Source: an uncultured Candidatus Saccharibacteria bacterium (GTDB taxonomy: Bacteria > Patescibacteriota > Minisyncoccia > Phycocordibacterales > DATDWN01). From it: a DNA stretch of 64,000 bases. Below the pieces are notes generated by a model, which was given only the letters and a program-made list of their open reading frames with translations, ran no database searches and was not told where the DNA came from. The stretch covers positions 175,161 to 239,160 of the forward strand of contig CAZQVT010000001.1 in NCBI GenBank assembly GCA_964596875.1. The letters are read 5' to 3'. A program made the translations under genes and the position numbers. This document shows, piece by piece, positions 39,892-63,266 of the stretch (the first letter of the stretch is position 1; the number at the start of each line of letters is the position of its first letter).

Positions 39892-39913
39892 AGTCGCCAT
39901 AGTACGAGGCGGT
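39892..39913 (+). repeat. direct repeat DR1 (AGTCGCCATAGTACGAGGCGGT, extends to ~35 nt)
   Basis: identical 22-mer at 40240-40261; both followed by (T)TTTTCGT. Confidence 0.7.
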
Positions 39914-39956: not shown

Positions 39957-40220
39957 ATGGCTTTTTGTCGACTTACTCGTGTAGTAAAGAAAGATGGAAC
40001 CACCAGGGATGTACTCCAGGTGTTTTACGATGATCAAAAGATCGAACCGGTAATTCTTGAAAAAGGAGAAGGAACTCAATATGTTATAGAAGGGACCACA
40101 ACCATCTTTGGGAATTCAGAAGAAATGCTTCCCGAAGATCTCAAGGCTGAGGTGCTGGCGATTCGTGATTCGATTGAGCGTGGTGAATTCGTAGACATTG
40201 ATCACAAGCTCGACAAGTGA
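39957..40220 (+). CDS. hypothetical small protein (87 aa), minicassette 6
   Basis: GGAGG RBS 7 nt upstream; 5'UTR homologous to cassette 3; flanked by direct repeats. Confidence 0.4.
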   Translation: MAFCRLTRVVKKDGTTRDVLQVFYDDQKIEPVILEKGEGTQYVIEGTTTIFGNSEEMLPEDLKAEVLAIRDSIERGEFVDIDHKLDK

Positions 40221-40239
40221 CCGTCACGTACGGCGATTA

Positions 40240-40261
40240 AGTCGCCATAGTACGAGGCGGT
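40240..40261 (+). repeat. direct repeat DR2 (terminator-like CGCC...GGCG + T6)
   Basis: copy of DR1 348 nt downstream. Confidence 0.7.
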
Positions 40262-40460
40262 TTTTTCGTTGGGTGATCTCTTAGTCTAGAGTAATTTACT
40301 CGTCGCCACTCCTAAATTCTCTCCGACCGCTGACTCGCTTGTTTTGTTTGCTAACAAAACATAGCTCCGTCTTCGAAGAGTAAAGAAAAAGCCCCATAAA
40401 AGGGGCTGTTTTCTATCTCTTCGACCAATGTGGAACGAAAATTTATTAAAATTTTCTCCT

Positions 40461-40517
40461 GGGAAACCCACAGTTTTCCCAATCTTTCCTCCACGGGAAA
40501 ACACCCAGTTTTCCCGA
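40461..40517. repeat. two tandem near-identical hairpins (C/T)GGGAAAAC-ACCCA-GTTTTCCC
   Basis: 9-bp stems 34 nt apart, REP-like. Confidence 0.55.
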
Positions 40518-40526
40518 CCCCTTTCT

Positions 40527-40594
40527 GCACCTCAGTGGAGTAAAAGAAAAACGCCCCTAAGGGCGTTAGTCTATCTTTTACTCCACTGAGGTGC
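40527..40594 (-). terminator. 20-bp perfect inverted repeat hairpin whose one arm is the last 7 codons of rpsI, nested canonical terminator in loop
   Basis: GCACCTCAGTGGAGTAAAAG...CTTTTACTCCACTGAGGTGC; loop contains CGCCCTTAGGGGCG+T5 on - strand. Confidence 0.6.
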
Positions 40595-40972
40595 TTTTCT
40601 CGCTTTTTTCAGACCGAATTTTCTTCTTTCCTTAGATCGTGGATCTCGTTTTAGGAAACCTGCTTTCTTTAGAGTTTTTCTTAGCATTTCGTCCCCTTCT
40701 ACAAGTGCTCTTGCAATACCGTGTCGCATTGCTTCTGACTGTGAGTGGATTCCTCCACCAACTATCTTTGCAGTGATCTTGAACTTTTCAGGAGTGTCTT
40801 TCAAAGGTTCTTTAACGATGTCTTGCATTCCCTTTATAGCAAAGTATTCATGTAGGTCTTTGTCGTTTACAACAAAACTTGTTTTAGATGCAGGAGTAAG
40901 TCGAACACGCGCAACAGAAGTTTTTCTTCTTCCAACAGTTTCTATGTATTTTTCTGATTTTGTTTTTTCCAT
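40571..40972 (-). CDS. rpsI: 30S ribosomal protein S9
   Basis: C-terminal ...KARKAPQWSKR. Confidence 0.9.
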   Translation of the reverse strand: MEKTKSEKYIETVGRRKTSVARVRLTPASKTSFVVNDKDLHEYFAIKGMQDIVKEPLKDTPEKFKITAKIVGGGIHSQSEAMRHGIARALVEGDEMLRKTLKKAGFLKRDPRSKERRKFGLKKARKAPQWSKR

Positions 40973-62137: not shown

Positions 62138-62196
62138 AAATCGATAGATTGAATTCTGATAGAGTTCAGAATTTAGATGAGATTCAAGGCGGACAA

Positions 62197-62240
62197 GAAA
62201 AATAACTTGAGCCTTATAAGTATAAGGTGAAAGTTATTTT
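62197..62240 (+). repeat. diverged hairpin element, possible copy F (outer AAAATAACTT/AAGTTATTTT, inner CCTTATA/TATAAGG)
   Basis: same CCTTAN...NTAAGG inner stem and GTGAAAGTT tail as copies C-E but different internal loop. Confidence 0.4.
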
Positions 62241-62264
62241 ATCGCAGTCCAACACAGAAGATCG

Positions 62265-63266
62265 CTAAATTCTGAACTCTATAACGTCGCCGTCCTTTAC
62301 AATATACTCCTTCCCCTCCGTCCTAACCTGCCCCTTCTCTCTCGCTACTGCATATGAACCAGACGCAAGTAAGCCATCGCAGTGAACAACTTCTGCACGT
62401 ATAAACTTATCTTTAAAGTCTGTATGTATTGCTGTTCCTGCCATAGGCGCGCTCCAACCTTTCTCTATAGTCCATGCGCGACTCTCGTCCTCACCTGTCG
62501 TAAAATAAGTAATTAGTCCCAAAGTTTCGTATGCTTTTTTAATTAGATCGTCGAAACCCTTTTCAAAAACTGGATCAATCTCAACAAAGTTTCCAGGGAT
62601 TCTATCTTTTACATCCAAAACATTTTCACTACTCGCCTCCGATGTGTTTAGTGCATACAAAATAGGTTTCATCGTCAAAAGGTGCATGTTTTTTACAACT
62701 TCTAGTTCTTCTTCGGTCAGCAAAAGAGTATTTGCAAGTTTGCCTTGTTTTAAAGTCTCCTGTACTTTTGTAAGAACTTCGTTTTCAAAAACAGCTTCTT
62801 TTTTGTTTTGTTTTACTTCACGCTGAATATTTCCAAGTCTTTTTGTTATAGTTTCGTCATCCGCCAAAACTAGTTCGTAGTTTATAACATCTATATCTCC
62901 TAGTGGGTCAACTTTTCCATGCACATGGATAACATCGTCGTCCTTGAATACTCGCACCATTTCAAGAATCGCATCTACCTCACGAATATTAGTCAAAAAT
63001 TTATTTCCTAGACCTTCTCCTGCTGCCGCCCCTTTTACAAGACCTGCAATATCAACAAACTCGATAACTGCTGGGATAGTTTTCGCAGATTTAGAAAGTT
63101 CTGAAAGTTTCCAAAGTCTTTCGTCTGGAACAGGCACAATACCAACAGATGGGTCGATAGTACAAAAAGGATAGTTTTCTGCCGGAACGCCTTTTTTTGT
63201 AAGTGCATTAAAAAGCGTAGATTTACCCACGTTTGGAAGGCCAACGATACCTATAGAAAGTTTCAT
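62265..63266 (-). CDS. ychF: ribosome-binding ATPase YchF (Obg family)
   Basis: G1 GLPNVGKST, C-terminal TGS domain. Confidence 0.85.
   Translation of the reverse strand: MKLSIGIVGLPNVGKSTLFNALTKKGVPAENYPFCTIDPSVGIVPVPDERLWKLSELSKSAKTIPAVIEFVDIAGLVKGAAAGEGLGNKFLTNIREVDAILEMVRVFKDDDVIHVHGKVDPLGDIDVINYELVLADDETITKRLGNIQREVKQNKKEAVFENEVLTKVQETLKQGKLANTLLLTEEELEVVKNMHLLTMKPILYALNTSEASSENVLDVKDRIPGNFVEIDPVFEKGFDDLIKKAYETLGLITYFTTGEDESRAWTIEKGWSAPMAGTAIHTDFKDKFIRAEVVHCDGLLASGSYAVAREKGQVRTEGKEYIVKDGDVIEFRI

Follow-up and report, generated by a model that had tools for sequence, protein, structure and literature searches.

An inverted repeat at the 3' end of rpsI as the probable closing stem of an exchangeable cassette in Parcubacteria

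A perfect 20-bp inverted repeat, one arm of which is formed by the end of the ribosomal protein gene rpsI, is present in the 64-kb stretch of DNA analysed here (hereafter the window), and it is somewhat probable that this repeat is the closing stem of a hairpin at the left end of an exchangeable rpsI 3'-end cassette, for which the interval from rpsI to grpE would serve as a recombination hot spot in Paceibacteria-type Parcubacteria (CPR). At the level of sequence comparison, the analysis demonstrates the architecture of the locus, its recurrence, the co-variation of the coding arm (X) with the downstream arm (X'), the exchange of cassettes with its breakpoint, and a strand bias of wobble pairs. 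Such a cassette would comprise its own last 8-10 rpsI codons and stop codon (X), the terminator T1, the inverted X' and a hairpin-rich core. Recombination that breaks within the final ~25-45 nt of rpsI could swap or stack cassettes while the S9 protein remains unchanged, and the previous gene end and its terminator would be pushed downstream as a relic (X*, T2), still joined to an older type-2 cassette. X and X' would thereby be inherited together, so that they would stay complementary in every lineage, whatever synonymous codons are used.

The gene rpsI (40571-40972, minus strand; stop codon TAG at 40571-40573) is the final gene of an rpoA-rplQ-rplM-rpsI block and encodes a product of 133 aa, for which Pfam Ribosomal_S9 was assigned on an identical Logan copy. 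Its last seven codons (APQWSKR) plus the stop TAG constitute X (40571-40594, minus strand), and the final codons GCACCTCAGTGGAGTAAAAG, i.e., GCA CCT CAG TGG AGT AAA AG(A) for A P Q W S K R, form arm 1 at 40575-40594. The exact reverse complement of X, named X', lies at 40527-40546 on the minus strand (arm 2) and is at the same time the 5' edge of a type-1 element. As the initial annotation had described, the two arms are complementary at 20/20 positions (21 nt are exact counting one more pair), and no other copy of the 20-mer or its complement was found in the window with 3 mismatches tolerated, while 100 shuffles gave 0 matches. The loop of 28 nt contains the rpsI stop codon and, again in agreement with that annotation, a nested terminator-like hairpin with T5. 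This hairpin, T1 (40547-40567, minus strand), is built as AACGCCC-TTAG-GGGCGTT (AACGCCCTTAGGGGCGTT, 40550-40567) followed by a T5 run (40547-40551) on the minus strand. It was flagged by a terminator scan and has the composition of an intrinsic terminator, with 7 pairs (5 G-C), a 4-nt loop and then TTTTTCTTTT on the minus strand.

The repeat is the longest local inverted repeat within the 64 kb, and an independent Logan assembly contig (L001) bears it in identical form; being non-random as well, the observation can be regarded as confirmed. Folding of the minus-strand RNA of 40405-40600 gave -82.8 kcal/mol (z = -7.7). The predicted fold contains 21 contiguous Watson-Crick pairs, which reaches the ~20 bp or more of uninterrupted dsRNA expected of an RNase III substrate, and the 20-bp perfect RNA duplex of the outer stem would suit this enzyme in size. 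Contig L001 (SRR12712864, 2084 nt) stops 56 nt past the rpsI stop codon, just beyond the second arm, and this contig end may be an assembly break from the repeat or from population heterogeneity at the cassette.

A type-1 core (40413-40526, minus strand), delimited by nhmmer, by a covariance model (R1, 118 bits) and by covariation, follows X'. In 5' to 3' order on the minus strand, it contains the joiner AGAAAGGGGTC (40516-40526), stem Pa (CGGGAAAAC-TGGGT-GTTTTCCCG, 40494-40516, a perfect 9-bp stem), GTGGAGGAAAG between Pa and Pb, stem Pb (TGGGAAA-ACTGTGGG-TTTCCCA, 40460-40481, a 7-bp stem), the AT-rich hairpin Pd (40438-40455) and X* (GTTCCACATTGGTCGAAGAGATAG, 40413-40436). X*, which reads W-S-K-R-stop with other synonymous codons and appears to be a displaced earlier rpsI end, matches the live rpsI end of a related locus (L004) at 22/24 nt by hand count. 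Behind it lies a second terminator, T2 (AGCCCC-TTTTAT-GGGGCT plus T5, 40386-40407, minus strand), probably the old terminator of the displaced end, which is identical to the terminator of L086. A type-2 unit (40274-40385, minus strand), recognized by alignment and by nhmmer (40371-40280, E = 1.8e-17), comes next. Its X2' (CTTTACTCTTCGAAGACGGAG, 40365-40385) pairs with X* and is followed by a bulged hairpin, GCGAGTCAGCGGTCG, a hairpin with the loop GAGTGGCGACGAG and the decayed end CTCTAGACTAAGAGATCA. The order in the window is, therefore, rpsI-X, T1, X', type-1 core, X*, T2, X2' and type-2 core.

Stems Pa and Pb are the two nearby hairpins that the initial annotation had called REP-like. Both hairpins do exist, but the label does not hold, since they are stems of one conserved element whose copies were found only directly after rpsI, in the window as well as in ~170 loci. 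Their hairpin pattern occurs at only 2 sites in the window, and as 9/100 shuffles also reached 2, the count of this motif alone is weak evidence. Dispersed palindromes of the REP/BIME type, or an assembly artefact, are hardly credible explanations. The likeness to REP/BIME, that is, two similar short, GC-containing tandem hairpins in an intergenic region, is a superficial one, because REP/BIME sequences are dispersed, whereas a single locus, always after rpsI, was found per genome region examined, with no further copies in the 64 kb or in the flanks of ~170 loci. As to an artefact, the same repeat is present in the independent Logan contig, and analogous repeats are present in dozens of independent assemblies. 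Profile and covariance-model searches of ~170 loci likewise placed type-1 and type-2 matches only directly 3' of rpsI and on the same strand.

The core was also compared with known RNAs. Rfam at gathering thresholds returned 0 matches for the window and 18 related loci, so that the whole 64 kb contains no tRNA, rRNA or riboswitch by this measure, and the best sub-threshold matches at E <= 10 on 40100-40700 were miRNA or terminator look-alikes. A literature search found no described CPR RNA motif at rpsI. RNase P RNA, SRP RNA, tmRNA and the hammerhead, twister and HDV-like ribozymes had no Rfam support even at E <= 10 and did not fit when their motifs were inspected by eye; tRNA-like folds also failed by-eye inspection and had no Rfam support. 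Partial resemblances of the motifs GAGGAAAG, GGAAGGCAG and GGCCGG...GGCGAA to known RNAs failed on inspection as well. A small ORF after a GGAGG motif was rejected, since homologues differ there by indels of non-multiples of three, which excludes coding. Pseudoknots pairing X* with the Pb loop (AACCGTGGG), or T1/T2 with the G-rich joiner, gave no consistent covariation on our own inspection. A scan of viral contigs for the Pb motif gave five unrelated chance matches.

The nearest genome records are MAGs of Parcubacteria, Paceibacterota and Zambryskibacteria, and in almost all of ~160 related loci grpE follows rpsI on the same strand, with a spacer of ~20 to ~2700 nt. When the rpsI 3' flanks of the best 80 genome loci and the best 80 metagenome loci were scanned, many loci proved to carry, 4-40 nt past the stop codon, a long complement of the last rpsI codons in other nucleotide sequences, with lengths of 20 nt (L021, L023), 19 nt (L026), 18 nt (L085), 16 nt (L009, L092) or 14 nt (L150, L144). 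The palindrome is thus not strain-specific, a point that the initial annotation had set as a check, because it occurs in many relatives, though not in all. In 24 curated loci, the X:X' stems comprise 307 Watson-Crick pairs, 5 G.U pairs and 13 mismatches, although these pairs are not independent events since the sequences are related, and several of the stem counts were curated by hand. Each varying synonymous site in X of these loci has a matching Watson-Crick change in X'. For instance, A:T, G:C, T:A and C:G all occur at the third position of the Pro codon, two to four pair types each are found at the third positions of Ala, Pro and Gln, and the Ser codon, whether AGT/AGC or TCN, has its complementary partners in X', as do the Lys and Arg sites. 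Where relatives differ in their rpsI C-terminal codons, the second arm differs correspondingly, which indicates that the arm tracks the coding sequence; the comparison of these codons had been proposed in the initial annotation.

The type-1 layout is common to the window, L021, L010, L009, L085, L092, L148, L108, L121, L023 and others. It is a conserved element of ~110-135 nt with X' as its 5' edge, and consists of the joiner (A)GAAGGGGGTC, stem Pa, GTGGAGGAAGG, an optional hairpin Pc with the loop AGCGAYAGCGAG, stem Pb with the loop AACCGTGGG, the variable hairpin Pd, X* and, often, a second terminator. X* in type-1 loci resembles the rpsI end and usually finishes in a stop codon. Type 2, which has the GGGGTCG and GTGAGCGAYRGCGA motifs in common with type 1, is present in L004, L079, L054, L041 and L062 besides the second unit of the window (40274-40385); L004 has its units in reverse order relative to the window, together with an exact duplicate of its terminator. 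Type 4 (L174, L180, L011) consists of one hairpin alone, and the repeat stands without a core in L026 and L087. The cores are, accordingly, not all homologous, which makes a single core function doubtful.

Several further variants were observed. X' of type 4 is split in two, as complements of AGTGGAGTAAAAG and GGAAGGC, and is followed by a long single hairpin, GCAGTCCCGTAGTGAGCTTTGCTCTACTACTGGGAC, after which L011 carries a direct repeat of 31 nt of the rpsI end in which the Ser codon differs. The last codons and stop codon of L150 and L144 form a 14-bp hairpin with a 4-nt loop, 4 nt past the rpsI stop. A different core follows in these two loci, and it may be a third relative of the element family, as the loop of its hairpin (GAGCGGAGCAAG / GAGCATAGCGAA) is similar to the loop motif of Pc and type 2. 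L002, L011, L013 and L180 contain a further conserved hairpin-rich stretch, GTCCTCGACCTGAATCCGTCAAG...CTTGACGGAACC...GCGGATGTTCC, at 100-250 nt past the rpsI stop, which may be another structured module; Rfam gave no match on L002 and L011.

A second inverted repeat of this kind is found in the window at ychF (62265-63266, minus strand). Its first arm is made up of the final 18 nt of the gene, stop codon included, and their exact reverse complement follows 88 nt downstream (62159-62282, minus strand; arms 62265-62282 and 62159-62176), and the repeat encloses a terminator-like hairpin at 62199-62240. An exact-protein look-up of the window YchF returned no record, and relatives were reached by homologue search. 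Those with 91-94% identity in YchF have the same terminator and next promoter without an insert of ~60 nt, which in the window lies exactly between these two and contains the perfect inverse copy of the CDS end and then a direct-repeat-like piece. Judged against these relatives, the ychF repeat is a lineage-specific inverted duplication across a terminator. Fold-back template switching at quasipalindromes produces perfect inverted copies centred on a hairpin and then a direct copy, and the direct-inverted-direct order fits two switches. The signature of this process at ychF indicates that it operates in this genome outside rpsI.

The repeat at rpsI might, by the same token, be a neutral by-product of replication, in which the nascent strand folds back at the terminator, copies the coding end inversely and switches back to give X, X' and X*, quasi-palindrome correction keeping the arms perfect and no function being involved. 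The fresh insert at ychF, the long arms that are nearly all Watson-Crick with few G.U pairs, and the order of X, X' and X* would all agree with this process. However, exact repeats of at least 12 nt between a CDS tail and its downstream sequence were found in 10 rpsI genes and only one other gene, the window ychF, among 1014 scanned ORFs of at least 100 aa from the window and all loci, and such enrichment at rpsI is not accounted for by template switching. Neither are the conservation of the core, the exchange between strains, the bias of imperfections to sense-strand G.U, nor the persistence of cassette sequences across hosts that are 17-30% divergent in rpsI. Moreover, the conserved core interior is not detectably derived from rpsI, as local alignments searching it for direct or inverted copies of the rpsI end were no better than shuffles (p = 0.02-0.5). 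Template switching would explain the origin and perfection of the arms, and a purely neutral origin of the whole is unlikely. Within the cassette reading, the simplest view is that X' arose as a fold-back (template-switch) copy across the terminator, as happened freshly at ychF.

Both stems of the type-1 core behave as in a structured RNA. In a 17-row alignment, 97.3% of the cells of Pa and Pb are paired versus 83.9% in shuffles, although this alignment was fitted to the model and the result, thus, leans towards it. Ten of the 15 pairs have double-sided changes, a number reached by 0/500 shuffles, and controls in which the stems were slid collapse, so that compensatory changes exceed those of shuffles. 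In L105, the element is circularly permuted, so that it begins with the 3' strand of Pa and closes with GGGGGTC and the 5' strand of that stem, which suggests that X' and X* are neighbours in the fold. As to wobbles on the rpsI-sense strand, hand-curated Pa, Pb and Pc have 11 G.U versus 1 A.C, the X:X' stems have 5 G.U versus 1 A.C, and L178 contributes 3 more G.U pairs in our own reading. Since the imperfections are G.U on this strand, we infer that the hairpin works in folded form as a single strand with the polarity of rpsI. The functional strand is most likely the RNA read through past T1; the G.U bias fits RNA, and a single-stranded DNA form would give the same bias.

These signals would also suit a vertically inherited cis-regulatory RNA in the rpsI 3' UTR, in which X' alternates between X and X* (stem P1), reports the completion of rpsI translation, and tunes read-through, stability or the expression of grpE-dnaK. 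In addition to the covarying stems, the sense-strand G.U pairs and the permutation in L105, this possibility draws on a core that is better conserved than rpsI, on a GGAG at the 3' end of X' in L119, ~13 nt ahead of the grpE start, on an element without a terminator between rpsI and grpE in L148, and on the conserved rpsI-grpE synteny. Nevertheless, the element is missing from most relatives, including the 91%-identical L082, units are exchanged among strains with identical S9, and the core is of another type in some loci and lacking in others (L026, L087, type 4). X* and X' do not covary, as L021 has the X* of the window together with another X'. Within the window, a convergent ORF lies between the element and grpE, as does a promoter of grpE's own. 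We consider such a regulator possible but rather doubtful.

The strand of the wobbles bears, too, on an antisense terminator, in which the 20-bp stem and the TTTTCTCGCTTTTTT behind it on the plus strand, complementary to the codons for Lys and Arg in the S9 tail, would halt convergent cargo transcripts before the ribosomal operon. A T-rich tract does directly follow the stem on the plus strand, the cargo genes of the spacer are often convergent, and in most loci the stem ends at the Ala codon beside the K/R-rich stretch. The sense-strand G.U pairs, however, become C.A mismatches on the plus strand, of which L178 alone has three, and it is because the wobble pairs are on the wrong strand that this explanation was rated low. 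Besides, the cargo ORF has its own strong terminator (40220-40267), the ychF repeat has no T-tract on its antisense side, and variants without T1 have short stems. An antisense terminator is, thus, very unlikely.

Evidence that the whole unit moves came from closer relatives, which were fetched at 89-97% identity in S9. L181 and L182 have identical S9 proteins and are 98.4% identical over 1890 nt upstream, and possess different cores downstream; 9 of the last 33 rpsI nt differ between them versus 6/369 in the gene body (p = 2e-7). Similarly, L174 and L175, with identical S9, show 6/33 versus 15/369 differences (p = 0.004), and L174 bears the type-4 single-hairpin unit where L175 bears type 1. 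The reverse pattern is seen between L175 and L181, whose gene bodies are 17% different while their last 33 nt have only 1 difference and their T1, X' and core start are 96% identical, and between L174 and L180, whose bodies are 12.5% different and which have 97% of 109 nt downstream in common. Identical S9 with different units, and differences piled up in the last ~33 nt, suggest that X, terminator, X' and core move as a cassette. This polymorphism in presence and exchange among close strains, with a breakpoint in the last ~45 nt of rpsI, is as known for ICE/IME elements. L174 and L180 have the same T1 as the window and the same 13 nt at the start of X', and divergence then begins inside X', indicating that the modules are mosaics. 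Between hosts, the core is 80-92% identical, versus 68-82% nucleotide identity in rpsI, and grouping the loci by core contradicts their grouping by rpsI. We also considered whether the rpsI of the window has a mosaic body, with a longer foreign 3' segment; segment identities gave no such signal.

The displaced gene ends tell the same exchange from the downstream side. According to our own reading, X* keeps the W-S-K-R-stop frame in 7/11 type-1 loci with synonymous differences only, and pairing of X* to X' in L021 would carry 5 mismatches in 12. Because the frame is kept and is not explained by pairing with X', X* seems to derive from genuine earlier gene ends. The X*, T2 and X2' of the window closely match the live rpsI end, T1 and X2' of L004, with S9 only 75% identical. 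Direct repeats of the rpsI 3' end, X and X*, flank an insert that restores the gene end in the window and 10 other type-1 loci, and extra direct copies of the rpsI end are present in L011 and L118. The initial annotation had supposed an inverted duplication such as a mobile-element insertion scar. Its tie to recombining DNA is supported, for the repeat moves together with a 3' cassette that is exchanged, and displaced rpsI ends lie downstream, but a one-off scar does not agree with recurrence in ~25 related Parcubacteria loci.

No recombinase was found beside a cassette; none of ten cargo ORFs scanned in relatives is an integrase, and the sole ORF between rpsI and grpE in the window, of 87 aa, has no Pfam match. 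Cassettes of ~150-350 nt are, moreover, too small for autonomy. In two strain pairs, L181/L182 and L178/L179, the downstream DNA including grpE is also more divergent than the upstream DNA, so that ordinary homologous recombination over a longer stretch, with one boundary in the conserved tail of rpsI, could fit. Such an exchange is possible and would need no dedicated mechanism; it would give the same pattern if one end fell repeatedly in the rpsI tail.

The 87-aa cargo ORF without Pfam match (39957-40220, plus strand) is convergent to rpsI and is followed by its hairpin and terminator (40220-40267, plus strand), which are conserved in relatives. Exact 19-nt direct repeats, TCGCCATAGTACGAGGCGG, are located at 39894-39912 and 40242-40260 (plus strand); the 3' half of the hairpin at 40220-40267 is repeated at 39894-39912, and the ORF is thus flanked by the two copies, the right one of which sits in a ~45-nt bulged hairpin with a T-run. 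The same cargo hairpin is found in L085, L009, L010 and L174-L183, and in L182 it flanks a 57-aa ORF on both sides. This conserved bulged hairpin looks like the boundary of small cargo cassettes. Cargo is highly variable in the spacers of L017, L020, L030, L068 and L128, where an ABC transporter, a Fic protein, a PaaX-like protein, a phage replication protein O with a C-5 cytosine methylase, and a TrkA-type K+ channel are encoded.

If the repeat closes a cassette hairpin as favoured here, X' would, in RNA that reads through T1, hold T1, the stop codon and the last codons of rpsI closed in a helix of ~35 bp, which might be an RNase III target and an insulator. X' could compete with X* for closure of the core, and a ribosome finishing rpsI would flip the pairing. 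The nested hairpin with its T-run and the substrate-sized outer 20-bp duplex resemble operon-end intrinsic terminators and RNase III stems, but the outer stem here is completed after the T-run, and as X' is made only then, it cannot aid termination at T1 in the sense direction. T1 looks like an efficient terminator, which may limit how far X' and the core are transcribed.

In streptococci, integration at the 3' end of rpsI has been documented for ICEs and IMEs such as IMESag-rpsI and ICESt3-type elements, which have tyrosine integrases (PMC4701971, PMC5704250). As in those elements, the 3' end of the S9 gene is targeted here while the gene is left undamaged because the incoming DNA supplies its end, the insert lies between direct repeats of that end, and the site collects variable cargo. 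Unlike them, no integrase, relaxase or mobility gene was seen, the units measure 150-350 nt as compared with 9-60 kb and carry an inverted gene end around a terminator together with a conserved folded core, and the host is a CPR bacterium rather than one of the Firmicutes. The locus can, therefore, be regarded as a variant of a known theme, the rpsI 3' end as integrase target, with tiny units, an inverted gene end and no recombinase seen.

Integron attC hairpins and the attP(+) hairpin of CTX-phi, which mimics dif, are folded single-strand recombination sites. The present hairpin resembles both in having one strand polarity and small stacked cassettes (a resemblance in shape only), and its stem reproduces a duplex copy of the chromosomal target; the cargo ORF of the window, flanked by a repeated bulged hairpin, is also like an integron cassette in shape only. 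One arm of the hairpin here is, unlike in attC and CTX-phi, the coding sequence of an essential gene, and no R'/R'' core motifs were identified. By analogy, a hairpin-directed cassette system might be imagined in CPR bacteria of the Paceibacteria group, in which folded X-T1-X' recreates the rpsI-end duplex as an attachment site for a trans-acting recombinase, and structured-RNA cassettes and, further along, small cargo ORFs delimited by a second conserved hairpin are captured, stacked and exchanged; we put this forward tentatively, as a minor possibility.

An exchangeable rpsI 3'-end cassette would have consequences for the analysis as well as the biology of these bacteria. Codon-level and phylogenetic analyses of rpsI in these lineages would be confounded at the 3' end, and assemblies may break at the cassette, as L001 ends just after the repeat. 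The cores would represent one or more structured RNA families new to Rfam, and the repeat would be an example from nature of codons that stay base-paired with the sequence 3' of their own gene. Furthermore, an essential, highly expressed ribosomal-protein gene would end in DNA not vertically inherited with the rest, its last 8-10 codons being part of an exchangeable module. CPR bacteria, with their tiny genomes and few recognised mobile elements, would then possess a defined hot spot at which small genes and RNAs are acquired.
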